From: an uncultured Mycoplasmatota bacterium
GTDB lineage: Bacteria; Bacillota_I; Bacilli_A; RF39; UBA660
Assembly: GCA_947642475.1 (NCBI GenBank)
Contig: CANRSQ010000001.1
Location: forward strand, 3,991 to 67,990
DNA: 64,000 bases
Reading direction: 5' to 3'
A model generated the notes under the pieces. The model made no database searches. It was given only the letters and a program-made list of their open reading frames with translations, and was not told the DNA's origin. Made by a program: the position numbers and the translations under genes. Shown piece by piece: positions 10,704 through 53,725 of the stretch (positions are counted from its first letter, which is position 1; every line of letters begins with the position of its first letter).

Positions 10704-10732
10704 ACTATAACATAACTAGTTTGTTTCGTCAA
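10704..10732 (-). promoter_or_regulatory. Promoter TTGACG-17-TATAGT driving the T-box leader
   Basis: Hexamers read on the minus strand. The -35 overlaps the toxN stop codon. Confidence 0.55.
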
Positions 10733-11247
10733 CTTTTTATTGTTAAATTATTATACTCATTGCATTTTTCTTCTAGCAATTTAAAATTGCAACATCTATC
10801 CATAATATTTTTATTTAGTTTTCCACAATTATACAAATCGTATAATTTTTTTGATTTATTCTTTATTGACTTATAATTTTCATTAAGCCATAGACGTTGT
10901 TCTTCTAATAATTTAATATATTTTCTTTCTAAATTATTAATACTTATTTTATCTAAATCTAGTAGTTTATAGTTACTAGGCATGACTGGTATCATATTAT
11001 TAAAATTTACTGCTCCTAATTCACCATTTTTTATTTTTAAAAAGTCCAGTGTGTTTTTCATTTTCAGGTGCTTAGGCTTTGGACTTGTTAGTGGTGCGAA
11101 ATATTCATATTTTCCAATATTAAACAAAACTCCTATAAATGGTCTTAAGTCTTTCTCATTTTTGTTGTAGGCTACCTTTTTATCATACTTTCTTAAATAA
11201 TCACAATATTCTGCATTAACTTTTACAATTTTTAAATTTAATATCAT
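10729..11247 (-). CDS. toxN: ToxN/AbiQ-family type III toxin (endoribonuclease)
   Basis: FIGVLFNIGKYEYFAPLTSPKPKH aligns to the ToxN FIGIVLEIQGHKYLAPLTSPKKWH core. NMIPVM, LLDLD and CNFKLLEEK also align. The GGGGGA RBS favours the third Met (11247). Confidence 0.8.
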   Translation of the reverse strand: MILNLKIVKVNAEYCDYLRKYDKKVAYNKNEKDLRPFIGVLFNIGKYEYFAPLTSPKPKHLKMKNTLDFLKIKNGELGAVNFNNMIPVMPSNYKLLDLDKISINNLERKYIKLLEEQRLWLNENYKSIKNKSKKLYDLYNCGKLNKNIMDRCCNFKLLEEKCNEYNNLTIKS

Positions 11248-11321
11248 TTCCATTCCCCCTTACCGCTATATTTACTACATGTTAATTATATAATTATTCA
11301 TTACACTTGTCAATTGCTTTT

Positions 11322-11362
11322 TGTTAATTTAAAAGAAAAGACTAGAGTTTAGTCTCTAGTCT
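11322..11362 (-). terminator. Rho-independent terminator between the RNA repeats and toxN
   Basis: AGACTAGAG / CTCTAGTCT stem followed by TTTTCTTTT on the minus strand. This matches the ToxIN arrangement. Confidence 0.65.
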
Positions 11363-11370
11363 ACTTTTTT

Positions 11371-11479
11371 AACTCCCAATTTAATGGCTGGGTTCACCGC
11401 TTTTTTAAGTCCCGATTTAATGGCTGGGTTCACCGCTTTTTTAAGTCCCGATTTTACGGCTGGGTTCACCGCTTTTTTT
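11371..11479 (-). ncRNA. toxI: ToxI-like antitoxin RNA: three tandem 36-nt repeats
   Basis: Units AAGTCCCGATTTAATGGCTGGGTTCACCGCTTTTTT x3 with minor variants, directly upstream of the terminator and toxN on the same strand. Confidence 0.75.
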
Positions 11480-11534: not shown

Positions 11535-11978
11535 TTATTTTTTAAATATTATTAATTTACTTAGTATATAATTCATAGCCACAACGACAAATTGAACGAT
11601 TATTTTGGCTATTGTATCATTTATGTGCATTAAACTATACATGATATACATCATGGCCATATCGACTAATAATGAAGCGATTCTAGCTGATACGAAATTA
11701 AATATTTCTTTTATTTGCATTTTTCCTTTGGTTTTACTTTTGAAAACCCATATTCTATTTGTTATATAGGCAAAAGCAACAGCGCATATCCATGAAAGGA
11801 TATTGGCAATTTGAATATCTAGGTCGGTTTTTTGTGGGAAAAGTATATTAGCAAAGAAAATATATGTCCCAAAAGAAACTACGGTTGTTAAAACGCCAAA
11901 GAATAAATAACTGATTATTTCTTCATATTTTTTATATAGTTTTTTTATTTTGTTTATCATTGTTTTTTCCCTTTTCAT
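11535..11978 (-). CDS. GtrA-family membrane protein (polysaccharide-lipid flippase-like)
   Basis: About 140 aa with 4 TM helices and a GtrA-like profile. Overlaps the GT2 gene end. Confidence 0.65.
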   Translation of the reverse strand: MKREKTMINKIKKLYKKYEEIISYLFFGVLTTVVSFGTYIFFANILFPQKTDLDIQIANILSWICAVAFAYITNRIWVFKSKTKGKMQIKEIFNFVSARIASLLVDMAMMYIMYSLMHINDTIAKIIVQFVVVAMNYILSKLIIFKK

Positions 11979-12903
11979 TTGTTAGTATTTCTCTTGTAAT
12001 ATAGACTGGTCTATTTTTTGTTTCAACGTAAGTTCGCGCTAGATATTCACCGATAATTCCAATACTTAATAATTGGACACCACCTAATAATAGGATAAGG
12101 GTTACGATGGTTGCATAACCTTCGGTATCGATTCCATAAAATATTTTTTCTATTAGGACTACTACTAAATATATTAATGAAAGTAATGAAACTATTATAC
12201 CTAAAATTGTTGCAAATCTAAGTGGAACAGTTGTGAATGAAACGATTCCTTCGATAGCGTATTTAAATAATTTATAAAATGACCATTTTGAGGTTCCATC
12301 ATTACGAGCCTCTACATCATAAGTCATATAACAGTTATTGAATCCTACCCATGAGAAAATTCCTTTTGAGAAACGATAGTATTCTTGCATTTCTAATATT
12401 GCATCTACCATGTTTCTTCTGAATGTTCTAAAGTCACTGGCACCCATAACAAATTCTGTTTCAGACATTCCGTTTATTATTTTATAGAATTTATTTTTAA
12501 AGAATGTTAAAACTTTACTTTCTTTTCTTCGTTCTTGATAGGCAACTACTGAATCATATTCTTGATTTTCATCTAAGATTTCTACCATTTTTACAACGTA
12601 ATCTGGTCTTTGTTGTAAATCGGCATCGATGATTGTTACATAATCTCCTTGGGCTTCTTTTAATCCAGCATATATTCCGGCTTCTTTACCAAAGTTTCTA
12701 GAAAAATTGATTATTTTAATATTTTGATCTGTTTCTTCTAATAATTCTTTTAATTTTCCTATTGTATTATCTTTACTACCATCATTTATGAAAATTATTT
12801 CGTAATCTTGTATTTGATTTTTAAATGTGTTTTTTACTGTTTCTGCGAAAAGTTTTACATTTCCTTCTTCATTATAACAAGGAACTACTAATGATAACTT
12901 CAT
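11932..12903 (-). CDS. Polyprenyl-phosphate glycosyltransferase (GT2, GtrB/CsbB-like)
   Basis: VVPCYNEE...INDGSKDNT GT2 motifs plus two C-terminal TM helices. Confidence 0.8.
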   Translation of the reverse strand: MKLSLVVPCYNEEGNVKLFAETVKNTFKNQIQDYEIIFINDGSKDNTIGKLKELLEETDQNIKIINFSRNFGKEAGIYAGLKEAQGDYVTIIDADLQQRPDYVVKMVEILDENQEYDSVVAYQERRKESKVLTFFKNKFYKIINGMSETEFVMGASDFRTFRRNMVDAILEMQEYYRFSKGIFSWVGFNNCYMTYDVEARNDGTSKWSFYKLFKYAIEGIVSFTTVPLRFATILGIIVSLLSLIYLVVVLIEKIFYGIDTEGYATIVTLILLLGGVQLLSIGIIGEYLARTYVETKNRPVYITREILTNEKGKNNDKQNKKTI

Positions 12904-18080: not shown

Positions 18081-19499
18081 CTATTTTATTTCTTTAAATG
18101 TTTTGCCTTCTTCAATTTCTGTTATATATTTATGAGCGTTATCAACAGTGTTTTGGTCTGGTATCATTACATATAGATTACTTCCTGGCATTGAATAACA
18201 ATTACCTCGTGAACTTGTTCCATCAACGCTTATTGAATTTATATTCCAGTTTGGCACTCCATTTAATTGATTTTTTATAAATGATTTCATTTGGCTTGAT
18301 GTTATATTTGTTTGAAGTGAGTCATTTAAGGTTTCAAGTATTTTATTATAGTCTTTTAATAAGACTTCGCTACTTGTAACTTTTTGGAAGATGGCGGTTA
18401 TAACTTGTTCTTGATGTTTTCCTCTAGCTCTATCTCCGCCTTCTAAGACGTGTCTTATTCTTGAATACATTAGAGCATTCATACCATCTAAGTGGTTAAT
18501 ACCTTTTTTATAGCTATATCCATATTCGCTGAAGGCTTGATCGGATACAACATCTATTCCGCCAATGGTATCTACTAATTTTATTAAGGTTGTAAAATTT
18601 ACTCTAACGTAATAATTTATATCTATGTCTAGTAAATCTTCTATTGTTGTTAGTGTCATATTAATTCCATATATTCCAGAGTGTGTTAGTTTATCTTCCC
18701 CACCGTCTATTCCATGAAGCCTTACATAATAATCTCTTGGAATATGGGTTAATAATATTTCATGCGTTTTTGGATTTACGGTCATAATTATGTTAACGTC
18801 ACTTCTTGATGTTTTTGTTATAGAACCATCTGTATCTATTCCGCTTATTAATATATTAAATGGTTCTTTTGTTATATCTAATTCATCTTCTTCTATTTTT
18901 GTATTTGTGGTTATGTTTATTTTATCAATTATTCGAATGTTTTTAGAAAAGTTTTCATTTTCTTCACAAATTAAATCGTAATATGCGGAATTTAAATATA
19001 TGGCATCTGTTTTATTTATTCCTTCAATTACTTCGTTTGTGGTTATTAGTGTTTCTTTTTTAAATTCTATTTTTTCTTCTAGTTTATTTGTTGCTTCGGT
19101 GTTTCCCATATAAATACCGATTGTTTTATTTTCTAATTGTTTTATATTATTATATGAACTATCTTTTTTTACTATAACATAATAAATGTCTGTCTCTGTT
19201 TTTACTGTTTTTATATTGTTAAAAAAGTTATTTGTATCGTTTAAATAAGCTATTCCAAAAATACTTCCTAGCGTTATGATGATTTCTATTAGTGTTAGAA
19301 CAATTTTAAGTGGTAGTTTTTTTATTTTTTTAAACATTAATGTAAATATAACTATTATAATTAAAATTATTCCTAATATTATAAATAAATATTTATTTGG
19401 TAATAGGTTTAATATGCATAGCTCTATACCTAAACATATTAATGCGACTATAAATAGTGCGAATATTACTTTATAAAGTATATTAAATATTTTTGACAT
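18081..19499 (-). CDS. LytR-CpsA-Psr (LCP) family cell-wall polymer transferase
   Basis: N-terminal TM region plus an LCP domain (ISGIDTDG...SRSDVNIIMTVNP...IPRD). Confidence 0.8.
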   Translation of the reverse strand: MSKIFNILYKVIFALFIVALICLGIELCILNLLPNKYLFIILGIILIIIVIFTLMFKKIKKLPLKIVLTLIEIIITLGSIFGIAYLNDTNNFFNNIKTVKTETDIYYVIVKKDSSYNNIKQLENKTIGIYMGNTEATNKLEEKIEFKKETLITTNEVIEGINKTDAIYLNSAYYDLICEENENFSKNIRIIDKINITTNTKIEEDELDITKEPFNILISGIDTDGSITKTSRSDVNIIMTVNPKTHEILLTHIPRDYYVRLHGIDGGEDKLTHSGIYGINMTLTTIEDLLDIDINYYVRVNFTTLIKLVDTIGGIDVVSDQAFSEYGYSYKKGINHLDGMNALMYSRIRHVLEGGDRARGKHQEQVITAIFQKVTSSEVLLKDYNKILETLNDSLQTNITSSQMKSFIKNQLNGVPNWNINSISVDGTSSRGNCYSMPGSNLYVMIPDQNTVDNAHKYITEIEEGKTFKEIK

Positions 19500-19581
19500 G
19501 ATTTCACCTCTTTAAATGTTTGGTATTGTACTATAACTATTTTTATTTGTCAAAATGAAAATTTTGGAATTGAAAAATCCA

Positions 19582-19692
19582 CTATTTAAAGTGGATTTCC
19601 TTGTTTAATGTTTCATCATAGTCTTTGCCTATTGATAAAACTTTTAAGGTTATTATTGTTAGAGAAGTTAGCGTTATAAGTATTACTGTCAT
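19582..19692 (-). CDS. 36-aa small ORF MTVILITLTSLTIITLKVLSIGKDYDETLNKEIHFK
   Basis: AGGAGGG RBS 7 nt upstream. Hydrophobic N-half. AAATCCACT / AGTGGATTT hairpin at the 3' end. Confidence 0.35.
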   Translation of the reverse strand: MTVILITLTSLTIITLKVLSIGKDYDETLNKEIHFK

Positions 19693-19899
19693 TTGTTTAC
19701 CCTCCTATTATAATAGTAGCAAATTTTCTATTAAAAATCCATGTTTTTATGATTTTCTTTTTTTATTTTGTTATTTTTTGAGTTTTCTGTTGTTTTATAT
19801 GGTTTTGGCTCGATTTGACAAAGCATTAATTTTCTGTTAGTATAACCCACCGAAAACAAAAAGGGACTTCTTATAAAGAAGTAATCAGGGGGGAAATTT

Positions 19900-21474
19900 A
19901 TGAAAAAAATTGGTAAAATATTGTTTTTAAGTTTAATAACTTGTGCGTTATTAGTTTTTGGATGTAGTGACACTATCGCGGCTACTAAGGCTAAAACTAT
20001 TACGATTAAGAGTGCGAAAAAGATTACTAGTTTTATAGGCAACTATAATCAAGATTTTACTATTTATACTACTACTGGTAAGAAAACTGTTTATAGTTTG
20101 AATTTTGATAAAATGCCTTTAAAGAAAAATATGAAATTATCTTTTGATGATAATGGTGATGAAGGATTATTATATCTTTTAGAAAATAGTTATCCCAATT
20201 CAAAAATAACTGGTGATAGTGCGACTGATAAGTATATTACACAAGCTGCTATTTGGTGGTATATGGATGCTACTTTCCAAGGTGCTAAAGTTAATCCTAT
20301 TTTAAAAGATGAAAATAATGAGGAAGATACTTATGGCCTTGTTTCTAATTATATTAAACCTTTAGTTGAAAAAGCTGTTAAGGCTAAATATGAAGGTTAT
20401 AAAACTAAGAAAGCGACTATGAAGGTTAATAGTGATAATACTGCTTTATCTTTAAGTAAAAATAAAAAATATTTTGAATCTGATTATATTTCTGTTGATT
20501 TAGATGGCGCTAGCAAATATACAGTTTCTAGTGATGCAACTATTTTAGATGAAAATGGTAAAAAGAAAGAAAGTTTTAATGCTTCTGAAAGTTTTAAGGT
20601 AAGAATTCCTGTAAGTAAAATTTCAGATAATAGTAAAGTTTCTGTAACTGTTAAATCTGATGGTCAGGAAAAAGTGGCTAAAATATTTGTTCCTAGTGAT
20701 TCTAAATATACAAGTGTTATTGGATTATATAACAAAACTACTAATTTAAGTGAAACTTTTGATTTAAATGTTATGGTTGATACAACTTGTAAATATATAG
20801 ATGGTAATTTTCATGATAAATCTGGTAATGTAGTTGATGAACAAACTTATAGAAATGCATGTGCAAATGTTTGTAAGATTGTAAATGAGAATTACTATGA
20901 TACTACTGGCGAAGAAACTAGTAAGTTAATATTTGATCAAGAATGTAAAAATTCATGTGTAATTGATGATGAAACTTATTATGGTGTCGATGGCAGAAAA
21001 GTTGATAAAAATACATTTGATAAAGAGTGTCCAGTAGCAAATGTTACTAAAACTTCTGATACTAAGGATAGTTTAAATTTATTTGCGACTGCTAAAATTG
21101 CGATAGACAAAGCTGCTGATGAGGCTAAAACTTTAGCTGAAAAGGATGCTAAGATCAAAGCTGAGAAAGCTGCGAAAGCTAAAATCGAAAAAGAAAAAAC
21201 TGAACAAGAAGCTAAAGCTAAGGCTGAGAAAGAAAAAGCTGAACAAGAAGCTAAAGCTGAACAGGAAAAAGCTGAGCAAAAAGCTAAAGCTGAAAAAGAA
21301 AATACTGAAGCTAATTTAACTGATAATCAAAATGTAGTAAATCCTGCAGATGAATTAGAAGTTGAAGTTCCTAATACCAGTGCTGAAGTTCCATTTTCTA
21401 ATATGTTATTTGGTACTTTACTTGTATTAATGGGATTAGGAGTATTATATAAAAGAAATAAATCTTTAAGTTAA
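19900..21474 (+). CDS. Cell-surface protein with TQXA motif, Cys-rich repeats, A/K/E coiled coil and C-terminal sorting-signal-like anchor
   Basis: Signal peptide with LVFGC. TQAAIWWY at 20240-20263. Three CKxxC-type repeats. AKAEKEKAEQEAK coiled coil. Ends VPNTS + TM + KRNKSLS. Confidence 0.7.
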   Translation: MKKIGKILFLSLITCALLVFGCSDTIAATKAKTITIKSAKKITSFIGNYNQDFTIYTTTGKKTVYSLNFDKMPLKKNMKLSFDDNGDEGLLYLLENSYPNSKITGDSATDKYITQAAIWWYMDATFQGAKVNPILKDENNEEDTYGLVSNYIKPLVEKAVKAKYEGYKTKKATMKVNSDNTALSLSKNKKYFESDYISVDLDGASKYTVSSDATILDENGKKKESFNASESFKVRIPVSKISDNSKVSVTVKSDGQEKVAKIFVPSDSKYTSVIGLYNKTTNLSETFDLNVMVDTTCKYIDGNFHDKSGNVVDEQTYRNACANVCKIVNENYYDTTGEETSKLIFDQECKNSCVIDDETYYGVDGRKVDKNTFDKECPVANVTKTSDTKDSLNLFATAKIAIDKAADEAKTLAEKDAKIKAEKAAKAKIEKEKTEQEAKAKAEKEKAEQEAKAEQEKAEQKAKAEKENTEANLTDNQNVVNPADELEVEVPNTSAEVPFSNMLFGTLLVLMGLGVLYKRNKSLS

Positions 21475-21494: not shown

Positions 21495-22169
21495 ATGGAA
21501 GAAATTAATGTAAGAGAAATTTTAGATTTCTTTATATCAAAAATATGGTTAATTATTATATTTATACTTGTGTTTGCAGCTAATGGTTATTTATATTTCG
21601 CACATATTCAAACACCAAAGTATCACAGTTCTACAACAATTATCCTTGTAAGTGAACAGGAAGATACTAATACTTCTAATATTAGTATGAACCAACAACT
21701 TGTTTCTACTTATAGTGAGATTGTTAAAAATAGAAGTGTTTTAAGTAAAGTTATTAATAAATTAGATTTAGATATGTCTGTTAAGGAACTTGCTGAAAAT
21801 ATTTCGGTTACTTCGGTAGATGATACTGAAATTATTAAAATCGAAGTTAGTTCGGTAGACAATGTACTTGCTCGTGATATTGCTTCTGAGGTTGCGAAAA
21901 CGTTTATCTCTGAAGTTAATGACATCTTTAAATTACAAAACGTTACAATTTTATCTGAAGCTCAAATTGGAAACCAACCTTATAATGTTTCTTTAATTAA
22001 ACAAGTTGCTTTATCTGGCGCTGTTGGATTATTCTTAAGTTTAATTATTATATTTTTAATTTATTATTTTGATACTTCTATAAAATCAGTAGAAGCTATT
22101 GAAAATAAAGCAAAATTAACTGTCTTAGGTACAGTAGAAAAGGTGAAGGGGAAAAATGAAAACAAATAA
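21495..22169 (+). CDS. Polysaccharide chain-length determinant (Wzz/CpsC-like)
   Basis: Two TM helices flanking a periplasmic coiled-coil domain. Precedes the BY-kinase gene. Confidence 0.8.
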   Translation: MEEINVREILDFFISKIWLIIIFILVFAANGYLYFAHIQTPKYHSSTTIILVSEQEDTNTSNISMNQQLVSTYSEIVKNRSVLSKVINKLDLDMSVKELAENISVTSVDDTEIIKIEVSSVDNVLARDIASEVAKTFISEVNDIFKLQNVTILSEAQIGNQPYNVSLIKQVALSGAVGLFLSLIIIFLIYYFDTSIKSVEAIENKAKLTVLGTVEKVKGKNENK

Positions 22170-22869
22170 GAATGAGATTAAAAATGAAATTTTATTAAAT
22201 GATAATCCTAAATCTTCTTTTAGTGAATCAATAAAATCTATTAGAGCTAATTTAAAATTCTCTGATTTAGATGGCGGAAATAAGGTTATTTTGATGACTA
22301 GTGCGAACCCTAGTGAAGGTAAAAGTTTTATAACTGCTAACCTTGCTTGTTCGTTTGCGAAGGATAATAAAAAAGTTTTAATTATTGATGCTGATCTTCG
22401 TAAAGGGCGTCAGCACAGAATTTTCGGAATTCCTAACAACAAAAAGAATGGTTATTCTAATATGATTGTTAATGTTAATAAGGATGGTTTTACTTTTGAT
22501 GGTTATATTAATAAAACTAGTGTTCCTAATTTAGATTTCATTAATTTAGGGGCTACTCCACCATCACCAACTGAACTTTTATCTTCTGATAATAACAAAT
22601 TATTACTTGAATTTTTAAAGAGAAAATATGATTATATTTTCCTTGATTGTCCACCTGTTTTAGGTTTGAGTGATACTTTAATTTTAAGTAGGATTTCTGA
22701 TTTTAATATTGTTGTTGTATCAAACAAACAAACTAAAATGGAACAATTATTAGATGTTAAAAAAGCTTTTGAAAAAGCTGGAAGTAATATTACTGGTGTT
22801 ATCTTAAATAAAGTTGATAAAAAACGTCATGGCTATGGATATGGCTATTACGGTTATTATGGTGAATAG
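22156..22869 (+). CDS. BY-kinase (CpsD/YwqD-like tyrosine kinase)
   Basis: Walker A SEGKSF. C-terminal Tyr cluster GYGYGYYGYYGE. Confidence 0.85.
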   Translation: MKTNKNEIKNEILLNDNPKSSFSESIKSIRANLKFSDLDGGNKVILMTSANPSEGKSFITANLACSFAKDNKKVLIIDADLRKGRQHRIFGIPNNKKNGYSNMIVNVNKDGFTFDGYINKTSVPNLDFINLGATPPSPTELLSSDNNKLLLEFLKRKYDYIFLDCPPVLGLSDTLILSRISDFNIVVVSNKQTKMEQLLDVKKAFEKAGSNITGVILNKVDKKRHGYGYGYYGYYGE

Positions 22870-22871
22870 TA

Positions 22872-23597
22872 ATGAAAGATTTACACACTCATGTAATGTT
22901 TGGAATTGATGATGGTAGCACGAGCTTAGATGAATCTATGGCTATGCTTGAAAGATTAGCTAATGAGGGCGTTACTGATGTAATGCTTACGCCACATTAT
23001 ATTGAAAATAGTAGATTTAATTGTAATAACAATACAAAGAAAAAGTTATTTAAGGAAATTAAGGCTGAGGCTTTAAGGCGTGGAATCAATATTAATGTTT
23101 ATCTTGGCAATGAGGTTATGGTTAACGGAAACATAATGAATTTATTTAATACTGAAATTGCGACTTTAAATGCCTCTAAATATTTATTAATCGAACTTCC
23201 TATGGATAAGGAATTTGATGATTTAGATTTAGTTATAAAAGAATTAATGGATTGCGGCGTTGTTCCTATAATTGCCCATCCTGAAAGATATAATTATGTT
23301 AAAAAGAATTATAAATGGGTAGAAGATTATTTAAAAATGGGCGTTTTATTTCAAAGTAATTATGAAAGTTTATTTGGCAAATATGGAAATGATGCGAAAA
23401 AAACTTTGAAAAAATTACTTAAACATAATATGATTCATTTTCTTGCTTCTGATATACACCATGAAAGTAGCGAATGCAATTTAAAAAAATTACATTCTAA
23501 GTTAAGAAAAATTATTCATGATGAAAAGGTTATAAATGATTTATTAAATGATAATTTTACTAAAGTTATTAAAGACGAAAATATAGAGAGTTTATAG
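22872..23597 (+). CDS. PHP-family protein-tyrosine phosphatase (CpsB/YwqE-like)
   Basis: DLHTHVMFGIDDGS N-terminus typical of CpsB. Confidence 0.8.
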   Translation: MKDLHTHVMFGIDDGSTSLDESMAMLERLANEGVTDVMLTPHYIENSRFNCNNNTKKKLFKEIKAEALRRGININVYLGNEVMVNGNIMNLFNTEIATLNASKYLLIELPMDKEFDDLDLVIKELMDCGVVPIIAHPERYNYVKKNYKWVEDYLKMGVLFQSNYESLFGKYGNDAKKTLKKLLKHNMIHFLASDIHHESSECNLKKLHSKLRKIIHDEKVINDLLNDNFTKVIKDENIESL

Positions 23598-23606
23598 GGT
23601 GTTAGT

Positions 23607-24284
23607 ATGTATAAATATGTTAAAAGATTTATTGATATTATTTTATCTACTCTACTTTTAATTTTATTTATGGTTCCAATGATTATAGTTAGTATTTGTA
23701 TTAAATTAGAAAGTAATGGTCCTATTTTATTTAAACAAATGCGTACTGGTTATAAGGGAAAGGAATTTACTTTATATAAATTTAGAAGTATGACAGTGGA
23801 TAATAATGTTCTTGATTTTTCTAATGAGAATAAGGTTACTAAAGTTGGTAATTTTATTAGAAAAACTTCTTTGGACGAGCTACCACAATTTATTAACATT
23901 TTAAAGGGTGATATGTCGTTTATTGGTCCTAGACCTTGGATTACCAGTTATGCAGCTTTGTTTACTGACAATCAAAAAAGAAGACTTGATGTAATTCCTG
24001 GAATTACTGGTCTTGCTCAGGTTAGTGGTCGTAATGATATTAGTATATTAGATAAGATTAATTATGATATTGAATATGCCAACAATTTTTCGTTTTTAAT
24101 GGATATAAAAGTTATTTTTAAAACGATTAAAACTATTTTTTCAAAACAAGGAGCAGAAATTAAAAAAAGTGGAATTGCGAATGAGCTTAACACTTTAGAA
24201 AAGCATCTTTTTAGCCATAAGGTTATGCATAGGGTTAATAAAAGATCTGGTGCGAATGAGATTAGTGAATTAGTTATAGATTAG
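23607..24284 (+). CDS. Undecaprenyl-phosphate sugar phosphotransferase (bacterial sugar transferase family)
   Basis: Single TM plus the conserved C-terminal PGITGLAQV motif. Confidence 0.85.
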   Translation: MYKYVKRFIDIILSTLLLILFMVPMIIVSICIKLESNGPILFKQMRTGYKGKEFTLYKFRSMTVDNNVLDFSNENKVTKVGNFIRKTSLDELPQFINILKGDMSFIGPRPWITSYAALFTDNQKRRLDVIPGITGLAQVSGRNDISILDKINYDIEYANNFSFLMDIKVIFKTIKTIFSKQGAEIKKSGIANELNTLEKHLFSHKVMHRVNKRSGANEISELVID

Positions 24285-24303
24285 AATATCAAGGGGGGAT
24301 ATT

Positions 24304-26421
24304 ATGAAGAAGGTATTATTTACGGCAACGGTAGATTCTCATATCGAGTTATTTCACGTGCCGTTTTTAAAATATTTTAAGGATAATGGCTATGAAGTTC
24401 ATGTAGCCACTAATGGCGATAATGATATTCCTTTTTGTGATAAGAAGATTAAAATTCCTTTTGAAAGAAGCCCATTTAAATTAAATAATTTAAAGGCTAT
24501 TAGGAGGCTTAAAAAGGTTATTGAAAGTGAAAATTATGATATTATTCACACTCATACTCCTATGGGTAGTGTGGTTACAAGATTAGCGGCTTTAAAGGCT
24601 CGTAAGAATGGTACAAGGGTTATTTATACAGCGCATGGTTTTCATTTTTATAAGGGTGCTCCCCTACTAAATTGGCTTTTATTTTATCCTGTGGAAAAGA
24701 TTTTAGCTAGATATACTGATGAGTTAATAACTATTAATAAAGAGGATTATAACTTAGCTAAAAATAAATTTGATGTTAATGTTTATTATGTTCCTGGTGT
24801 GGGAATTGATGAGTCAAAATTTGATGTTAGTATGACTTCTCTTGATAAATCTAATTTAAGAAAATCTTTAGGTTTATCTGATGATGATTTTGTGATGATT
24901 TATCCGGCTGAACTTAATAAAAACAAGAATCAATTATTTTTAATTAATGTAATGGAAATTCTTGTGAAAAATTATCCAAATATTCATTTGTTATTGGCTG
25001 GTAAGGATTCTTATAATGGTTTTTATCAGGAACTTGTTAATAGTAAAAATTTAAATAATAATATTCATTTTTTAGGATTTAGAAATGATATTCCTAAATT
25101 ATTAAAAATTGCTGATATATCTCTTTCGGCAAGTTTACGTGAGGGTCTTCCGGTTAATATTATGGAAGCTATGTATGTAGGTTTACCTATTATCGCAACT
25201 GATTGCCGTGGTAATAGAGATTTAGTTACTGATGGAATTAACGGTTATGTTGTTCCTAAAAATGATAGCTACTCTTTTGTTAAAAGAATTAAAGAATTAT
25301 ATTTAAACAGGCAAAAGTTAATAGAAATTTCTAGAAAGAATAGAAATGATATTAATAAATATTTACTTTCTAATATTATGAATGAGATGGTAAATATTTA
25401 TGAAAGAAAAACTAAGGTTATGCATGTTTTAGCTAGTAATAATTTTTCTGGCGCTGAAAACGTTGCTTGTACTATTATTAAGGAATTTAATGATGAATAT
25501 GATATGCTTTATGTAGCTACTAAGGGTAATGTTGAAGATATTTTAATTGAACGTGGTATTGATTATATGTTAATTGATAAATTATCTTTTAGAAATGTTA
25601 AAAGGGCTTTAAAGGAGTTTAGACCTGACATTATTCATGCTCATGATTTTAGAGCTAGTTTGATTGTTTCTAGGCTTAAATATAAAGCTAAAAGAATTTC
25701 TCAGATACATCAGAATCCAACTTGGTTTTCTAAAGTTAATCTTAAGACACTTTTATACGCCTTAACTTCTAAAAAAATGGATAAAATTGTTTTGGTTTCT
25801 GAAAGTGTATATGATGAATATGTTTTTAAAGATAATATTAAAGACAAGGTTTCAATTATTCCGAATTATGTGGATAAGAATATGATTATTAATCAATCTA
25901 AAGCTCATTTTAATGAACATTTTGATGTTTGTTATTTTGGTAGATTATCTACTGAAAAAAATCCTTTATTATTTATCAATTTAATTAGATTGTATAATGA
26001 AACTTATGGAAAAAGGATTTCCGCTTGTATGATTGGTGATGGACCTATGTATGATGAATGCGCGAATTTAATTAGAAAATATGGTCTAGATTCTACGGTT
26101 AAAATGATGGGCTTTATGAAAAATCCTTCTAAGGTTATTAAAAATTGTAAGTGTGTTATAATGCCATCAATTTATGAAGGATTTGGACTTACAGCTGTTG
26201 AAAGTGTTTGCTTAGGTAAACCAGTATTAAATAGTGGTGTAGGTGGCCTTAAGGAAATTTTTAAAGATAATAAATGGTTAATTTGTAAAATTAATGAGGA
26301 CTATGTTTGTAAATTACATTATATTCTTCAAAATGGTTATAAAGAGTCTTTTGATGGTATAATTAATTTATATACTAATCTTGATAATTACAAAAACAAT
26401 ATTAAAAAGCTTTATAAATAA
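24304..26421 (+). CDS. Fused double glycosyltransferase (two GT4 domains, 705 aa)
   Basis: Two successive GT4-like units. The second starts near MHVLASNNFSGAEN. Confidence 0.7.
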   Translation: MKKVLFTATVDSHIELFHVPFLKYFKDNGYEVHVATNGDNDIPFCDKKIKIPFERSPFKLNNLKAIRRLKKVIESENYDIIHTHTPMGSVVTRLAALKARKNGTRVIYTAHGFHFYKGAPLLNWLLFYPVEKILARYTDELITINKEDYNLAKNKFDVNVYYVPGVGIDESKFDVSMTSLDKSNLRKSLGLSDDDFVMIYPAELNKNKNQLFLINVMEILVKNYPNIHLLLAGKDSYNGFYQELVNSKNLNNNIHFLGFRNDIPKLLKIADISLSASLREGLPVNIMEAMYVGLPIIATDCRGNRDLVTDGINGYVVPKNDSYSFVKRIKELYLNRQKLIEISRKNRNDINKYLLSNIMNEMVNIYERKTKVMHVLASNNFSGAENVACTIIKEFNDEYDMLYVATKGNVEDILIERGIDYMLIDKLSFRNVKRALKEFRPDIIHAHDFRASLIVSRLKYKAKRISQIHQNPTWFSKVNLKTLLYALTSKKMDKIVLVSESVYDEYVFKDNIKDKVSIIPNYVDKNMIINQSKAHFNEHFDVCYFGRLSTEKNPLLFINLIRLYNETYGKRISACMIGDGPMYDECANLIRKYGLDSTVKMMGFMKNPSKVIKNCKCVIMPSIYEGFGLTAVESVCLGKPVLNSGVGGLKEIFKDNKWLICKINEDYVCKLHYILQNGYKESFDGIINLYTNLDNYKNNIKKLYK

Positions 26422-26432
26422 GGGGTGATAAA

Positions 26433-27719
26433 ATGATTATTGGAGAAACAATTTTAATTGTTTTATATATGATAAATAGTAATCTTGCTTTTGCTTTTTC
26501 TCTTCTATTTTTTGGTTACTATTTATTTCAAAAAAATACTTCAAAATATGAAACATTATTTAATTTATTAATTTTAAGTACCCCTTTATTTTCAATTAGT
26601 ATTTTAGGTGCGAATTTGCATCATATGTTTTCTTGGATTTATATTTTTCTACTTATTTATTTAATTTTATTAGTTCGTGATTTAGCTAAGGGTAAGTATT
26701 GTTTGAAGAAAAATTTTTTACTAATTATTATTTTTCTGATTATTCTTTTTGTTCAAAGTATCATTGGTAATTTTGTATTATCTAATATTATGGAGTTTAT
26801 TCAAATTACAATTATGATATTACCGATTGCTTTAACTTATTATGCTAAAGATTATATCAAGACTTTACTTCCAAAGGATTTTTCTAGTAAGTTTGTTAAT
26901 TCTATAGGTAATGTAATTTTTGCGACAGCACTGGCGGTTATTATTCAATGTGGTTTATATACTTATAAAGGAATTATGATTGGAAATATTAACTTTTTTG
27001 CCCAAAGAATTGTATTTGATGCGGTATTTAGTGGTTTTAGTATCTTATCAATATTTTTAGGTGTTGGTGTGGTTATTTATATGTATCAGCTTTTGAAATA
27101 TAAAAAGTTTAATTCTTTATTTAAGTTAGCAGTTATTGCTGTTGCGTTATTCTTTAATTCTTCAAGAACTGGTATTGTTGCTTCTGCTTTAGCAATTGGT
27201 CTTTGGATTATTAAAAATAGTTTTTCTAAGGGTAAAATTAATTTTAAAAATTTGATGTTCTTATTAATTTTTGTTATTGCATCTTTTTTCTTACTATATC
27301 AATTATTTATGGTAAGAGGTGATGATTCGATATTTGCTGGTTCTGGAAGGCTTGAAGGTTATCATCAAGCTTGGGATTTTACGATAAGTTCGCCTATTTA
27401 TTTCCTTTTTGGAAATGGTCTTGCGGCTAGTAATTATAATTTCACTTTACCTCATAACTTTATTTTACAAACTCTAATGTGTAGTGGTATATTTATGTTA
27501 GTTTATTCTTTAATTTTTGTTTATAAGCTTATTAAGGTAACTAGTGATGACATTTTTAAATATATTATTATTGCTATTTTAATTGGAGGACTTTTAACTA
27601 CTGACTTTTATGCGAATACTTTCTTTACGGTTTTTGCAGTTATAGGTTTAATTTGTAATTCTCTAAATGGTGGTGAAAAAAATGAAGAAAAAAGTAACTG
27701 TAGTAGTTCCGGTTTATAA
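26433..27719 (+). CDS. Wzy-like polysaccharide polymerase / O-antigen ligase family membrane protein
   Basis: About 10 TM helices with a central large loop. Position within the cluster. Confidence 0.65.
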   Translation: MIIGETILIVLYMINSNLAFAFSLLFFGYYLFQKNTSKYETLFNLLILSTPLFSISILGANLHHMFSWIYIFLLIYLILLVRDLAKGKYCLKKNFLLIIIFLIILFVQSIIGNFVLSNIMEFIQITIMILPIALTYYAKDYIKTLLPKDFSSKFVNSIGNVIFATALAVIIQCGLYTYKGIMIGNINFFAQRIVFDAVFSGFSILSIFLGVGVVIYMYQLLKYKKFNSLFKLAVIAVALFFNSSRTGIVASALAIGLWIIKNSFSKGKINFKNLMFLLIFVIASFFLLYQLFMVRGDDSIFAGSGRLEGYHQAWDFTISSPIYFLFGNGLAASNYNFTLPHNFILQTLMCSGIFMLVYSLIFVYKLIKVTSDDIFKYIIIAILIGGLLTTDFYANTFFTVFAVIGLICNSLNGGEKNEEKSNCSSSGL

Positions 27720-28647
27720 TGTTTCTAATTATTTAGGAAAATGTATTGATTCAATCATTAATCAAACATATAAAAAATTGGAAATCATTTTAGTTGATGA
27801 TGGTTCTACTGATAATAGTGGTGCTATATGTGATGATTTTGCTTCTAAGGATAAACGTATTAAGGTTATACATAAGGAAAATGGTGGTTTATCGGATGCT
27901 AGAAATTTTGGTATTGATATTGCTACTGGTGAATATATTGTCTTTGTCGATAGTGATGATTATATTGCTTTAGATATGATTGAGTTTTTATATAATAGTT
28001 TGGAAAGTAATGAGGCAGATATTTCTACTTGTTTATATCAGAATTTCTATGATGGTGAAGATGTTTTAGAAAGCGATGACAATATTTCGTATGTTTGCTC
28101 TAATACTGAAGCGCTTGAAAAAATGTTATATCAACAAGACTGTACTACTAGTGCTTGGGGTAAATTATATAAAACTTCATTATTTGATGGGATTAGATAT
28201 CCTAAAGGTAAAATTTGTGAAGATTTAGATACTACTTATTTACTGTTTTCTAAGGCTAATAAAATAGTTATTAATACGGCTAAAAAGTATTTCTATCTTC
28301 AGAGAGAAACTAGTATTATTAATTCTGAATTTAACCCTAAAAGAATGGATGCTTTGAAATTTGTGAAAAATGAAACTGATTATATTATTAAAAATCATTT
28401 AGAAATATTTAAAAGTGCGGTAAATAGAGAATTTATGGAAGCAATATTTATATTATCTTCTATGTCTAGTTTAAAGGGCAATAAGAAGTATATTAGGATG
28501 ATTTCTGATACTATAAAGGAAACAAGAAAAGTTGTTTTATTTGATAGTAAATCAAGGAAATTATATAGGCTATATGCTTTGATTTCTTATTTTGGAATTC
28601 ATATTTTATTCTTTAGTATTAAATTTAAGATGTTTTTAAAAAGGTGA
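27682..28647 (+). CDS. Glycosyltransferase family 2
   Basis: VVVPVYNVSNYL...DDGSTDNS...FVDSDD motifs. Start moved to the ATG after the GGTGGTGA RBS. Confidence 0.8.
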   Translation: MKKKVTVVVPVYNVSNYLGKCIDSIINQTYKKLEIILVDDGSTDNSGAICDDFASKDKRIKVIHKENGGLSDARNFGIDIATGEYIVFVDSDDYIALDMIEFLYNSLESNEADISTCLYQNFYDGEDVLESDDNISYVCSNTEALEKMLYQQDCTTSAWGKLYKTSLFDGIRYPKGKICEDLDTTYLLFSKANKIVINTAKKYFYLQRETSIINSEFNPKRMDALKFVKNETDYIIKNHLEIFKSAVNREFMEAIFILSSMSSLKGNKKYIRMISDTIKETRKVVLFDSKSRKLYRLYALISYFGIHILFFSIKFKMFLKR

Positions 28648-28651
28648 TTTT

Positions 28652-29686
28652 ATGAAATTAATTAAGGAAAAACTTATTCCAATTTATGAATATATTAAAT
28701 CTTATTTATTTCCTAGTAAGGTTTCTTTAGATTTTGATAATTCTAAAACTGTTTATATGTTTTTATGTCCTGACTATGGTAATATTGGGGATATTGCGAT
28801 TGGGTACGCCCAAAAGAAATTTATTGTGGAAAATTATCCTGATTACAATGTCGTAGAAATTATGATATCTAATACTTATGATTATATTATGAAGATTAAA
28901 AGGAACATTAAAAAGGATGATGTTATTGCTTTAATTGGTGGTGGAAATTTTGGTGATATGTATCCAAAAGCTGATTTTATGAGGTTATTTATTATTAAAA
29001 ATTTTAAAAATAATAAAATTATTTCTTTTCCTCAAACTATTAATTTTAGTGATAGTAAATATGGTCAAAGAAGGCTTTCTAAAAATATTAAGGTTATTAA
29101 TAATCATAAGGATATTGTTTTATTTGCAAGGGAACAGATTTCTTATGATTTAATGAAAGAATATTTTCCTAATAAAGAAGTATATTTATGTCCTGATATT
29201 GTTTTATCTTTAAATATGGTTAAAGTTTCTAAAAGAGATAATGTATTATTTGCTTTTAGAAATGATGATGAGAAAAAGATTAATGATGAATTTATAGATA
29301 ATCTTACTAAGTTTATTAATAGTAAAAATGAGGGAATTGTACTTAGGGATACTACGATACCTAATGATGAATTTGTTTGTGATGAAAGGCTTAATTATTT
29401 AAATAATCTTTTAGCTGATTTTGGTAAAGCTAAATTAGTTATTACTGACAGACTTCACGGAATGATATTTAGTTATATTACCGCTACTCCATGTATTGTT
29501 TTACCTAACAGTAATCATAAAATTAAATCTACTTATGATACATGGCTTAAAGATTGTGATTATATCAAATTTATTTCTGATTTAGATAATATTGATAGTG
29601 ATACCTACAAATTATTATCTTTAAATAATGTTATAAAAACTGATTTTAAAGATAAATATATTGATTTAAAAAATTGTTTTAAATAG
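28652..29686 (+). CDS. Polysaccharide pyruvyl transferase
   Basis: DYGNIGDIAIGYA and GGGNFGD motifs of the PS_pyruv_trans family. Confidence 0.7.
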   Translation: MKLIKEKLIPIYEYIKSYLFPSKVSLDFDNSKTVYMFLCPDYGNIGDIAIGYAQKKFIVENYPDYNVVEIMISNTYDYIMKIKRNIKKDDVIALIGGGNFGDMYPKADFMRLFIIKNFKNNKIISFPQTINFSDSKYGQRRLSKNIKVINNHKDIVLFAREQISYDLMKEYFPNKEVYLCPDIVLSLNMVKVSKRDNVLFAFRNDDEKKINDEFIDNLTKFINSKNEGIVLRDTTIPNDEFVCDERLNYLNNLLADFGKAKLVITDRLHGMIFSYITATPCIVLPNSNHKIKSTYDTWLKDCDYIKFISDLDNIDSDTYKLLSLNNVIKTDFKDKYIDLKNCFK

Positions 29687-29695
29687 GAGTTTAGT

Positions 29696-31093
29696 ATGGA
29701 TAAGAAAAAAGAATTATTTGGAAATACTGTTATTATTTTTATTGGTAAAATACTTCCACAAGTACTTTCTTTTTTCATGCTTTATTTATATACTTCTTTT
29801 TTAAGTACTAGTGAATATGGATCTGTTGATTTAATTATTACTTATGTTTCGTTACTTGCCCCTATTATTACTTTGCAGCTGGAAATGGCGATGTTTAGAT
29901 TTTTGATTGATGCTCGTGATAATGATGATGAAAAGAAAAAACTAATTAGTAACAATTATATTTGTTTAATTATTTTTTCTGTGGTATTTACTATTTTGTA
30001 TTTAATAGTAATGTCTTTTATTCATTTTAAGTTTACTTTAGTTGTATTATTCTATATACTAGCGACTATCTTTATGTCTAATGCGATGCAGATTGCTCGT
30101 GGCCTTGGTAAAAATAAGGTATTTGCTTATGCGAGTATTATTAATGCGATTATTCTTGTAATTAGTAATATTTATTTATTGGTATTTTTACATTTTGGTA
30201 TGTATGGAATGCTTTTATCTTTTGTTATCGCAAATGTTATTACATTTATTTATTTAGTATTTAGTCTTGGTTTATATAAACATATTGATTTTAAAAAAGC
30301 TTCTTTTGATAAAACTAAGGAATTAATTAAATATTCTTTACCTTTAATTCCTAATGGAATTTCTTGGTGGATTATTAATGCGGCTGATAGAACTATTATA
30401 AGTGCCGTTTTAGGAACGGCGGCTAATGGTATTTATGCGATTAGTAATAAGTTTCCGGCGATTTTATCTAGTCTGGGAACGGTATTTAGTTTGTCTTGGA
30501 GCGAGTCTGCTTCACTTCATATTAATGATAAGGATAGAGATAGTTTCTTTTCTTCAGTGTGTAATAATTCTTTAAAAATATTTGGTAGTTTAAGTATTTT
30601 GATTATTGCGGTTATTCCTTTTGTTTTTGGTGTCCTAATTAATCCTAATTTTAATGAAGCTTATAAATATATTCCAATTTTAGTACTTGGGGCTTTGTGC
30701 AACAACATGGTTATTTGTTATAGTGCTATTTATATTGCGAAAAAGCTTACTAAAAAGGTTATGAATACTTCTATTATGTCTGCGGTTATTAATATTGTTA
30801 TTAATTTGGTTTTAATTAAGTTTATCGGTATTTATGCGGCAGCTATATCTACTTTTATTGCTTATTTTGTAATGCTTATTTATAGACATTTTGATGTGTT
30901 GAAATATGTTAAAATTAAATATGATTTTTCTTTGATTTTGAAGATTAGTATAATGTTTATTTTTGTTTCTATTTTATATTATATTAATAATTTTTACCTT
31001 AATATTTTAGCTTTATTAATTGGATGTATTTTTACTTTTGTTTTAAATGGTAGTTTAATTAATGAAGTTAAAAGGATGTTTTTAAGAAGATAA
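29696..31093 (+). CDS. Wzx-type polysaccharide flippase (PST family)
   Basis: 465 aa, about 12 TM helices. Typical terminal position in the cluster. Confidence 0.8.
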   Translation: MDKKKELFGNTVIIFIGKILPQVLSFFMLYLYTSFLSTSEYGSVDLIITYVSLLAPIITLQLEMAMFRFLIDARDNDDEKKKLISNNYICLIIFSVVFTILYLIVMSFIHFKFTLVVLFYILATIFMSNAMQIARGLGKNKVFAYASIINAIILVISNIYLLVFLHFGMYGMLLSFVIANVITFIYLVFSLGLYKHIDFKKASFDKTKELIKYSLPLIPNGISWWIINAADRTIISAVLGTAANGIYAISNKFPAILSSLGTVFSLSWSESASLHINDKDRDSFFSSVCNNSLKIFGSLSILIIAVIPFVFGVLINPNFNEAYKYIPILVLGALCNNMVICYSAIYIAKKLTKKVMNTSIMSAVINIVINLVLIKFIGIYAAAISTFIAYFVMLIYRHFDVLKYVKIKYDFSLILKISIMFIFVSILYYINNFYLNILALLIGCIFTFVLNGSLINEVKRMFLRR

Positions 31094-31169: not shown

Positions 31170-31874
31170 ATGGTTACTTTTGAAAAAAATACACGTCTTA
31201 AAAACATTTTAAAAGGTATATTTGTTATCTTACTTTATTTTTTTGTAAGTTTATTTAAGGAACTTCCTTTATTGTTAATGGGGCTTCATTATGACTCTTT
31301 AAGTATTTTTGGAAAAGAATTTTATTCTATTTTGATTGAAGTTTTACTTATTTTAGCTATTTTCTTTATTTTTAAAGATGAGTTTAAAAGGGCTTTTACT
31401 GATTTAAAGAAAAATCATTTGAAATATTTTACTAGTAATTTTAAATACTATATTGCTGGTGTGATTATTATGATGATGGCTAATTCTTTAATTTTAATTT
31501 TAGGTGGGAACTCTTCTGATAATGAAACTGCTATCCGTAGCCAATTTGATATGTACCCTATTTTTACTTTTATTTCAGCTGTCTTCTTGGCCCCTATTTT
31601 AGAGGAAAGCGTATTTAGATTAAGTTTTAGAAATATATTTAAAAATAATATTTTATTTATTTTGGCTTCTGGATTTATCTTTGGTGGTCTTCATTTAACT
31701 GGTATGTTTGATAGTAATTTATTTTTCTTATATTTAGTTGCTTATTCTGCGATGGGTGTAGCTTTTGCTTATATGCTTGCTAAAACTAACAATATTTTTG
31801 TAACAATGGGATTTCATTTTATGCATAATGGAATACTTATGTCTTTACAAACTTTTATATTATTATTTGGATAA
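31170..31874 (+). CDS. CPBP (CAAX protease / Abi) family intramembrane metalloprotease
   Basis: EESVFR, FGGLH and HFMHN motifs. Own extended -10 promoter (TGaTATAAT). Confidence 0.8.
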   Translation: MVTFEKNTRLKNILKGIFVILLYFFVSLFKELPLLLMGLHYDSLSIFGKEFYSILIEVLLILAIFFIFKDEFKRAFTDLKKNHLKYFTSNFKYYIAGVIIMMMANSLILILGGNSSDNETAIRSQFDMYPIFTFISAVFLAPILEESVFRLSFRNIFKNNILFILASGFIFGGLHLTGMFDSNLFFLYLVAYSAMGVAFAYMLAKTNNIFVTMGFHFMHNGILMSLQTFILLFG

Positions 31875-52874: not shown

Positions 52875-52912
52875 AATTAAAAAATCCCCAGATACTAGGG
52901 ATTTTAACTGTT
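52875..52912 (-). terminator. Terminator after hicB
   Basis: AAAATCCC / GGGATTTT hairpin followed by T5 on minus. Confidence 0.6.
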
Positions 52913-52961
52913 ATGGGCTAACAGTGGACGTCTAATAATATTATACTCTTTTTCTTATAAA

Positions 52962-53348
52962 TTATAACATATTTAATTCTCTTTTAATTCCATCTTGTAA
53001 AATTTTAGAATAATTTAATCCTTTTTCTTCTGCTAAAGTCTTTAACCATTGAGGCATAGTAACCGTAGTATTAACGACTTTCTTTGATATTGCGCGCTCA
53101 TGTTGAGTTAGATTAAGATCTACCAAAGTAATAAATTCATCAGGTTCAACTTTAATATTCATATAATCCAATGTTGGTTCTGGTTTATTTTCGTATTCTG
53201 GCAACATATTAAACAATACGTCTTGTGCCATAAAGTATGCGTCTTCAAAGCTATCTCCGAATGTAAAAACGTTGTCAAAATCAATAAATTCAACACTATA
53301 TGAATTGCCTTCCTTTTTAAACTTTGCAGGATAAAAATATGTTTGCAT
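52962..53348 (-). CDS. hicB: HicB-family antitoxin
   Basis: HicB/UPF0150 N-fold plus C-terminal ribbon-helix-helix-like DNA-binding tail. Confidence 0.7.
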   Translation of the reverse strand: MQTYFYPAKFKKEGNSYSVEFIDFDNVFTFGDSFEDAYFMAQDVLFNMLPEYENKPEPTLDYMNIKVEPDEFITLVDLNLTQHERAISKKVVNTTVTMPQWLKTLAEEKGLNYSKILQDGIKRELNML

Positions 53349-53393
53349 AGTTCCTGTTTTATTGTGGACAAAATAAAATATAAGGGGTGGGAG

Positions 53394-53573
53394 CTATATT
53401 TTAGCTCCTGTCACTCTAACGATGTTAGCCAATGTTCCTTTAGGGATATCACCTTTGTGATTTGGAATAGGACAAACCTTACCACCTTTTTTATATATCA
53501 TATGTGATCCTTTTTGTCTATCTAATTTCCAGCCTTCTTTTTCTAGAACTTTGACTAATTTTCTTACGTCCAC
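53394..53573 (-). CDS. hicA: HicA-family toxin (mRNA interferase)
   Basis: KLVKVLEKEGWKLDRQKGSHMIYKK HicA core. Start reassigned to the GTG 5 nt after AGGAGGG, because a TTGACA-16-TATAAT promoter overlaps the upstream ATG given by the ORF track (53597). Confidence 0.7.
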   Translation of the reverse strand: MDVRKLVKVLEKEGWKLDRQKGSHMIYKKGGKVCPIPNHKGDIPKGTLANIVRVTGAKI

Positions 53574-53595
53574 AACTGCCCTCCTTTCACTATAC

Positions 53596-53636
53596 ATTAT
53601 ACTCTTTTCTTAACATTTGTCAACACTTGTTTGACG
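53596..53636 (-). promoter_or_regulatory. hicAB promoter (TTGACA-16-TATAAT) with inverted repeat GTCAA-N7-TTGAC overlapping the -35
   Basis: Hexamers and inverted repeat read directly from the sequence. Confidence 0.6.
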
Positions 53637-53725
53637 CGTTTAGCATTTTTTTATTTCAATTGTCATCAAAATTTGTGTTTTGTTTGTATATTATTCTTAA
53701 TGCTTTAATGATATCTTAAATTTAA

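Follow-up and report, generated by a model that had tools for sequence, protein, structure and literature searches.

A surface protein encoded at the capsule locus of uncultured gut Bacilli with a Class II thioester domain fold and no thioester-forming residues

Genomic context of the TED-like gene

The 64,000-nucleotide stretch analyzed here, referred to below as the window, comes from an uncultured bacterium (contig CANRSQ010000001.1) and carries, at the head of a capsule locus, a gene for a protein of the thioester domain (TED) family, whose Cys-Gln thioester lets bacteria bind host molecules covalently. The product of this TED-like gene is probably an exported, stalked surface protein with a Class II TED head that is unable to form the Cys-Gln thioester. 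A previous sequence-only reading had proposed the same coding sequence and had placed it at the head of an exopolysaccharide locus. Both proposals were borne out: the open reading frame (ORF) encodes 524 amino acids (aa), and a wzz-cpsD-cpsB series follows it. The features discussed below are collected in Table 1.

Table 1. Positions of the TED-like gene, its parts and its neighbors, numbered from the first letter of the window
Feature	Position	Strand	Basis or remark
Divergent LytR-CpsA-Psr (LCP) glycopolymer transferase gene	18081..19499	-	Conserved neighbor
Promoter-like TTGACA-17-TAGTAT, TG before the second hexamer	19815..19843	+	57 nt upstream of the ATG
Gene of the Class II TED surface protein without a thioester	19900..21474	+	ATG-initiated ORF, 524 aa
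Sec signal peptide, residues 1-28 (predicted)	19900..19983	+	Orthologue alignment and sequence features
Class II TED fold, residues ~29-293, head lobe and inserted β-sandwich (predicted)	19984..20778	+	AlphaFold2, Foldseek, family profile
Ser66 (VYSLNFDK), codon AGT, column of BaTIE Cys71	20095..20097	+	MAFFT/hmmalign and 6fwv profile alignment
TQAAIW, the TQxxΦW helix motif, residues 114-119	20239..20256	+	Retained; not the bond-forming Gln
Thr271 (SKYTSVIG), codon ACA, column of BaTIE Gln266 ('kYQrVVG')	20710..20712	+	MAFFT/hmmalign and 6fwv profile alignment
Three 25-aa Cys-bracketed repeats with 3-aa linkers (C297-C321, C325-C349, C353-C377)	20788..21030	+	
E/K/A-rich helical spacer, residues ~398-472 (putative)	21091..21315	+	33/39-nt DNA tandem repeats
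VPNTS (490-494), hydrophobic segment (495-517, 23 residues), KRNKSLS and stop	21367..21474	+	
Capsule locus: wzz, cpsD kinase, cpsB phosphatase, priming transferase, glycosyltransferases, wzy, pyruvyl transferase, flippase	21495..31093	+	

The TED-like gene is the first plus-strand gene of the capsule locus and is separated from wzz by a gap of 20 nucleotides (nt), in which no terminator-like site was found. A Shine-Dalgarno-like sequence (AGGGGGG) lies about 8 nt upstream of its ATG. The promoter-like site further upstream is a consensus match only, and such sites are not enriched in the AT-rich region there. In the same intergenic space, a hairpin followed by a T-run occupies positions 19575-19598, and an ORF of 34-36 aa has been called between the LCP and TED-like genes in three contigs (L001, L002 and L032), corresponding to about 19580-19700 on the minus strand of the window.

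The succession of a minus-strand LCP gene, the TED-like gene, wzz, cpsD and cpsB was found in the window and in the loci L003, L004, L005, L006, L029 and L032, with the glycosyltransferase portion of the capsule locus differing between these syntenic loci. The capsule locus of the window ends with the flippase gene, directly followed by a gene for an Rce1-like/CPBP intramembrane protease (31170-31874, plus strand). L006 contains a 56%-identical copy of the protease gene (20414-21094), about 6-7 kb downstream of the cps genes there.

The nearest public sequences to the TED-like protein belong to metagenome-assembled genomes (MAGs) of uncultured gut 'Bacilli bacterium'. The window has a G+C content of about 29% and encodes a GerA/GerAC/spore permease set, a small acid-soluble spore protein, a carboxypeptidase of the penicillin-binding protein 5 type and EzrA, which points to a spore-forming, walled Firmicute as the host.

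Head domain

The sequence-only reading had recognized a TQXA-type motif in TQAAIWWY. This motif occupies residues 114-121, and the Pfam TED model PF08341 matched residues 82-159 with 24.9 bits, just above its gathering cut-off of 22; the NCBIfam model TQXA_dom reached 19.4, under its cut-off of 30.4. An exhaustive profile search gathered 1359 cluster representatives of the TED family at E<=1e-3, and the family profile (139 members) matched the TIE protein of B. anthracis (6fwv) with an E-value of 1.6e-54 and the TIE86 TED of E. faecium (6fwy) with an E-value of 2e-15. Structure prediction, which had been suggested as a check together with the absence of a TED-like fold as the refuting outcome, returned such a fold. 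The AlphaFold2 model of residues 24-300 had a mean pLDDT (per-residue confidence) of 94.2 and a pTM (predicted template modeling score) of 0.88. Its top Foldseek matches in the PDB were the Class II TEDs 6fwv and 6fwy (E-values from 2e-15 to 3e-12, TM-score of 0.71 or less), and next in rank came Cpa, CpTIE and SfbI, which are Class I TEDs. On the strength of this model and of the profile matches, the head of the protein is confidently assigned to the Class II TED fold. Of the two possibilities left by the sequence-only reading, a degenerate thioester domain and a novel adhesin class, the former thus describes the protein well, since both bond-forming residues are replaced in a confident Class II TED (see below). 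The latter does not, as the protein belongs to a large known family, of which VPNTS is the commonest sorting signal.

Loss of the thioester-forming residues

The TED bond joins a Cys in a [YFL]CΦζ strand to a Gln in a weak ΦQζΦΦ strand, and neither the Gln nor the Trp in the TQxxΦW helix is needed for it to form (PMC6194298; PMC4450167). According to Miller et al. (2018), the Cys and the Gln that make this bond are the only universally conserved TED residues (PMC6194298). BaTIE has this bond between Cys71 and Gln266 (indices 40 and 235 of the 6fwv chain, with an offset of 31), and the profile-to-6fwv alignment places the two residues on the family columns 'aYCl' and 'kyQnvvv'. In the protein of the window, these columns hold Ser66 and Thr271. 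The bond-flanking Asp68 and Arg272, conserved in Cys-bearing relatives, are also changed. The cysteines N-terminal to the TQ motif are C15 and C22 alone, both inside the signal peptide, in agreement with the earlier remark that upstream cysteines are confined to the signal/lipobox region. Because the mature head is devoid of Cys, an internal thioester is excluded on chemical grounds, as far as the encoded sequence goes.

The absence of the thioester Cys had been noticed before, and this part of the claim stood. Its site had been sought at YLLE (residues 92-95), which belongs to the conserved LYILENGYP helix preceding the TQ helix, and the true column is that of Ser66. The Gln of the TQ motif had likewise been mistaken for the signature residue of the thioester; the column of the bond-forming Gln is that of Thr271, and the TQ Gln is itself replaced by Glu (TEAAIW) in many orthologues.

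Among the 149 listed representatives of the wider family (P0020-P0168), 119 have both Cys and Gln, and in five the Cys column holds Ser. Four representatives with Ser at this column, P0109, P0136, P0137 and P0163, are each nearest to Cys-bearing proteins; their Gln columns read, in the same order, E, Q, S and E, and P0136 has a Cys two residues upstream (CYSLD). These four indicate that thioester loss has recurred. No report of natural TEDs without the bond-forming residues was found in the searchable literature, which is not proof that none exists.

A head that is still covalently reactive, through an internal oxo-ester formed by Ser66, would be in line with the fact that the independent Cys replacements outside the clade of close relatives (described in the next section) are all Ser, as they are in four members of the clade, and Thr-Gln ester cross-links do occur in the ester domains of other Gram-positive surface proteins (cited in PMC6194298). 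However, the acyl partner is replaced as well (Thr271), and in most of the clade the Cys column holds Gly. Moreover, a change of Cys to Ser takes a mere single nucleotide (TGT to AGT), and the engineered C68S variant of TIEpLS20, the Class II TED adhesin of pLS20, altered at the same position, lost its function (PMC8092201). An oxo-ester is, therefore, hardly credible.

Evolution of the Cys-less clade

The close relatives of the protein comprise nine proteins and four GTDB species with 49-76% identity, all of them without the thioester Cys; the Cys column holds Gly in nine of the 13 and Ser in the rest. In a neighbor-joining tree of the head domain, the 14 Cys-less sequences formed one clade without any Cys-bearing member. 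At the codon level, the Cys column reads TGT/TGC in Cys-bearing relatives, AGT where it encodes Ser and GGT/GGC where it encodes Gly, each a single step at the first codon position. The partner Gln is retained in ten clade members and gone in four (the protein of the window, P0008, P0009 and L005). Since the nearest relatives of the protein of the window have Gly together with Gln, the partner Gln looks to have been lost in at least two separate events. Such drift would be expected from a single ancestral loss of the Cys followed by release of the site from constraint, and the aligned sequences fit this course.

The members of the clade with known context all sit between the divergent LCP gene and wzz-cpsD-cpsB. 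In comparison, the Cys-bearing relatives occur as tandem pairs and never adjoin cps genes. Tandem Cys-bearing TED genes were seen in L007, L010-L015, L018, L030 and L031. In the two annotated contigs among these, L030 and L031, two large genes without annotation and then hisS/aspS lie downstream of the TED pair, so that TED genes have a second conserved locus. Both kinds of TED are present in two MAGs, namely JAAWSW01 (L004 and L023) and CASPVX01 (L005 and L021). This co-occurrence, together with the separate location of the Cys-bearing relatives, marks the cps-linked copy as a specialized paralogue.

Selection on the gene was estimated by comparison with L032, the nearest of the orthologous loci (76% identity), as the ratio of nonsynonymous to synonymous substitution rates (dN/dS). 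The ratio was 0.30 overall, with 0.39 in the head, 0.19 in the Cys repeats and 0.15 in the sorting signal, and from 0.05 to 0.22 in the neighboring LCP, wzz, cpsD, cpsB and priming-transferase genes. Inside the clade, 89 of the 265 head positions are at least 90% conserved. These values indicate that the TED-like gene is maintained under purifying selection. The opposite view, a former TED adhesin that is decaying into a functionless pseudogene, could draw on the missing bond-forming residues, on the replacement of the TQ Gln by Glu in many orthologues and on a head dN/dS above that of the neighboring genes. It is, however, very unlikely: at least 14 diverged sequences (49-76% identity) have intact ORFs of 407-533 aa with architecture and sorting signal kept, the overall dN/dS is far under 1, and the fold is predicted at high confidence.

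Two of the orthologues, P0003 and P0005, are named 'Cys-Gln thioester bond-forming surface protein' by NCBI, yet have Gly at the Cys position. This naming is likely an over-annotation from TQXA/TED models.

Export signal and stalk

The cysteine at the end of a lipobox-like LVFGC22 made a lipoprotein a candidate. This reading was rejected, since the Cys is T, A, S or F in five of nine close homologues. An Ala-Ala-type site of signal peptidase I at about residue 28 is conserved in the alignment of orthologues, and cleavage there appears more likely than lipidation.

The head is followed by the three Cys-bracketed units of Table 1, for which the family consensus is CExxDGKYYGKxGxEVDKxTYxxEC. The sequence-only reading had described them as three CxxxC-containing repeats; the number of units holds, and the CxxxC junctions number two. 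Family members have from 0 to 13 such units. In 74 of 83 proteins the number of cysteines is twice the number of units, and single-unit proteins have exactly the two bracketing cysteines. As the Cys number tracks twice the unit number, the most parsimonious arrangement would be one disulfide within each unit. AlphaFold predicted a short β-hairpin and a helix for each unit (pLDDT 75). No model for the repeat exists in Pfam or NCBIfam, and Foldseek gave no significant match in the PDB. The Cys repeat is a widespread stalk module, present in up to 13 copies (for example in P0141, P0126, P0026, P0038, P0044 and P0079), and it also occurs in TED-less proteins ending in NPQTG/NPKTG signals.

The second part of the stalk is the spacer rich in Glu, Lys and Ala. 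Residues ~398-475 are 74% Ala, Lys and Glu, with six bulky hydrophobic residues in 78, of which a single one (L473) lies past residue 429, and 23 of 74 i/i+4 pairs carry opposite charges. An AKAEKEK coiled coil had been proposed here. The segment does not have the heptad a/d hydrophobic pattern of a coiled coil (no dedicated predictor was run) and looks like a helical or low-complexity stretch of variable length; among the orthologues it ranges from absent to about 90 residues. No SpaA/CnaB domain was matched by Pfam in the protein, although other family members do carry PF17802.

C-terminal sorting signal

The tail had been described as sortase-signal-like but not LPXTG, and this holds: the tripartite layout of pentapeptide, hydrophobic segment and basic end is present, and the pentapeptide VPNTS matches the canonical LPXTG only in its P and T. 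The NCBIfam model EF0750_LPXTG accordingly scored 21.1 bits, under its cut-off of 47. Across 19 homologues, P491 and T493 are invariant and V490 is nearly so. A V-P-x-T-x motif at 24-39 residues from the C-terminus was found in 165 of 189 family sequences, VPNTS being the commonest form. The family profile aligns this motif with VPDTG of the S. pneumoniae protein RrgC (4oq1), a documented variant of the sortase signal (PMC5640630). Two family members of different lineages with the form VPNTN are followed immediately by a PF04203 sortase gene. In these two loci (L027, 6676-10176, and L033, 4188-7602), a conserved cassette comprises the gene of a TED-SpaA/CnaB protein with VPNTN, that of a 220-aa sortase, which overlaps the 3' end of the former, and that of a protein of about 300-346 aa. 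The last protein had no Pfam matches and in L033 has 306 aa and is rich in hydrophobic segments, and the cluster of the L033 sortase comprises 211 member sequences on 112 contigs.

From these data, wall anchoring through VPNTS by a sortase may be proposed. Several observations speak against it and in favor of a plain membrane protein, in which the hydrophobic segment would be a permanent C-terminal transmembrane anchor and VPNTS would stay uncleaved. Neither the window nor the orthologous loci yielded a sortase to a TLxTC-type regular expression, to tblastn with a family-linked sortase, or to Pfam searches of window ORFs outside the contig annotations. The pentapeptide differs from LPXTG and has Ser as its last residue, and its fifth position varies widely in the family (G/S/A/D/N/K/L), which is unusual in sortase signals. 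Finally, at least one Class II TED protein, TIEpLS20, is not sortase-anchored and works without sortases (PMC8092201).

Against the plain membrane protein stand the invariant Pro and Thr and the nearly invariant Val, kept across homologues of 24-75% identity with freely varying flanks, whereas a membrane anchor alone does not require conservation of such a motif. The motif is thus under selection, which argues against a mere membrane anchor. The VPNTN relatives encoded beside sortase genes point the same way, and housekeeping sortases are usually unlinked to their substrates. A search of a large protein database with the L027 sortase gave 751 matches, and among the 120 listed none was on a contig of the length (1.27 Mb) of the one that carries the orthologue P0009. 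Overall, a permanent membrane anchor is considered unlikely.

Other features of the window

Apart from the capsule locus, the window has a gene for a ToxN-family toxin (10729-11253, minus strand; assigned to PF13958 in the contig annotation). A 36-nt tandem repeat of 3.2 copies with 94% matches (11364-11478) lies a short way upstream of this gene on the same strand. Together (10729-11478, minus strand) they show the layout of a type III ToxIN toxin-antitoxin/abortive-infection module. A small protein with the N-terminal methylation motif of type IV pilins (PF07963; 12986-13357, minus strand) adjoins a GT2/GtrA pair (11535-12903).

The end of the window, from about 52900 to 64000, is a conjugative-element block with genes for a VirD4/TraG coupling protein (53764-56136), a VirB4-like ATPase (61507-63291) and a TraC-like protein (63291-63842), all on the minus strand, and several large ORFs without Pfam matches; a HicA/HicB pair adjoins it (HicB at 52962-53348). 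A link between the TED-like gene and this element at 53-64 kb, by analogy with TIEpLS20, was rejected: the gene is 30 kb away among housekeeping and cps genes, and its position is syntenic in genomes from which the cps context alone had been obtained.

Proposed function

The favored reading, a stalked surface protein with a disarmed Class II TED head, may be put in the following terms. The protein would descend from canonical Cys-bearing TED surface proteins, which persist as paralogues in related genomes. Once the Cys had been lost, in a single ancestral event, purifying selection would have kept the copy that heads the capsule locus, leaving the partner Gln and the TQ Gln, now useless, free to drift. 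The product would be exported by the Sec pathway and its signal peptide cleaved, and the hydrophobic segment with the basic tail would retain it at the C-terminus until a sortase encoded elsewhere in the genome cleaves VPNT/S and attaches the protein to peptidoglycan. The E/K/A-rich spacer, the three presumably disulfide-clamped mini-repeats and the TED β-sandwich would project the head outward from the wall and probably across the capsule; the TED-like gene is probably co-transcribed with the capsule genes. Any binding of a ligand by the head would be non-covalent, in place of the covalent binding of canonical TEDs.

Other points are less easily accommodated. The designation of a putative non-covalent adhesin is drawn from ancestry. 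The head dN/dS exceeds that of the rest of the protein and could mean partly relaxed constraint. Furthermore, the fixed position between the LCP gene and wzz may indicate a role specific to the capsule and not adhesion.

This last point leads to a glycopolymer carrier comparable to GspA of Actinomyces oris, where lcpA adjoins gspA and LcpA glycosylates the sortase-anchored GspA (PMC6381275). By analogy, the LCP enzyme would load the polysaccharide of the locus on the TED-like protein, the TED serving as a scaffold or acceptor, and a sortase would fix the glycoprotein to the wall. The LCP and TED-like genes are, indeed, divergent neighbors in all seven lineages examined, directly before the polysaccharide genes, and in the clade the cps linkage and the thioester loss came together. 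However, cps loci normally begin with an LCP gene, which serves to attach capsule to peptidoglycan, and the adjacency calls for no further explanation. There is no sequence similarity to GspA, no acceptor motif was identified in the protein, and LCP-mediated protein glycosylation has so far been shown in one actinobacterium alone. A carrier of this kind is, therefore, doubtful. A broader form of the idea, equally doubtful, is that the disarmed TED was recruited to the capsule system either as an LCP-loaded polysaccharide acceptor, a Firmicute counterpart of LcpA-GspA, or as a wall-anchored, lectin-like capsule tether. If either role is true, a natural TED fold would for the first time be seen to function without thioester chemistry, and a protein-linked capsule pathway of such a type would be without precedent in Bacilli.

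The stalked surface protein with a thioester-less head is of interest because the Cys is gone throughout a clade, and the Gln in several of its members as well, yet purifying selection keeps the fold, and the gene heads a capsule locus wherever its context is known. The TED scaffold thus appears useful independently of the thioester, and the clade provides a natural counterpart to the engineered Cys-to-Ser mutants that serve as negative controls. It also calls for caution in motif-based annotation. Moreover, a VPxT-type sorting signal and an uncatalogued, putatively disulfide-bracketed stalk repeat are documented, both widespread in uncultured gut Bacilli. In terms of novelty, this is a thioester-less variant in a well-known domain family rather than a new adhesin class, and mildly surprising to a specialist.

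Comparison with known systems

The closest structural counterparts are the TIE proteins BaTIE (6fwv), EfmTIE86 (6fwy) and SaTIE (PMC6194298), which have the same head lobe with the TQxxΦW helix and an inserted β-sandwich. As in the protein of the window, their TED is N-terminal after the signal peptide and their C-terminus carries a sortase-type signal. The TIE proteins keep the Cys and Gln, whereas Ser66 and Thr271 leave no possibility of a thioester here. Their stalk is made of CnaB isopeptide domains instead of Cys-bracketed mini-repeats and an E/K/A-rich spacer, and their sorting motif is LPATG instead of VPNTS.

TIEpLS20 (p34), encoded by the Bacillus subtilis plasmid pLS20, is also a Class II TED surface protein (PMC8092201). 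The C68S substitution engineered in it matches the natural Ser66 both in the kind of change and in its place within the motif. TIEpLS20 lacks a sorting signal and depends on its Cys for its role in conjugation (PMC8092201), whereas the gene of the window is chromosomal and cps-linked, has a sorting signal and is maintained without the Cys or the Gln. The Cys-bearing paralogues (for example P0011-P0018, L007-L022) stand nearer, with 35-43% identity in the head, the same VPNTS-type signal and an optional Cys-repeat stalk of 0-4 units, but they retain YC[LMI]D and YQRVVG.

Two further systems resemble single traits. RrgC of S. pneumoniae (4oq1; PMC5640630) shares the V-P-x-T-type pentapeptide in the form VPDTG; it is, however, a pilus base pilin served by the class C sortases of its pilus island, while the TED-like gene has neither a pilus operon nor a linked sortase and its motif has Ser as the fifth residue. 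In the GspA/LcpA system of Actinomyces oris (PMC6381275), a surface protein with a sortase signal is likewise encoded beside an LCP gene, but the two surface proteins are unrelated in sequence, and the LCP gene of the window is that of an ordinary cps-locus head.

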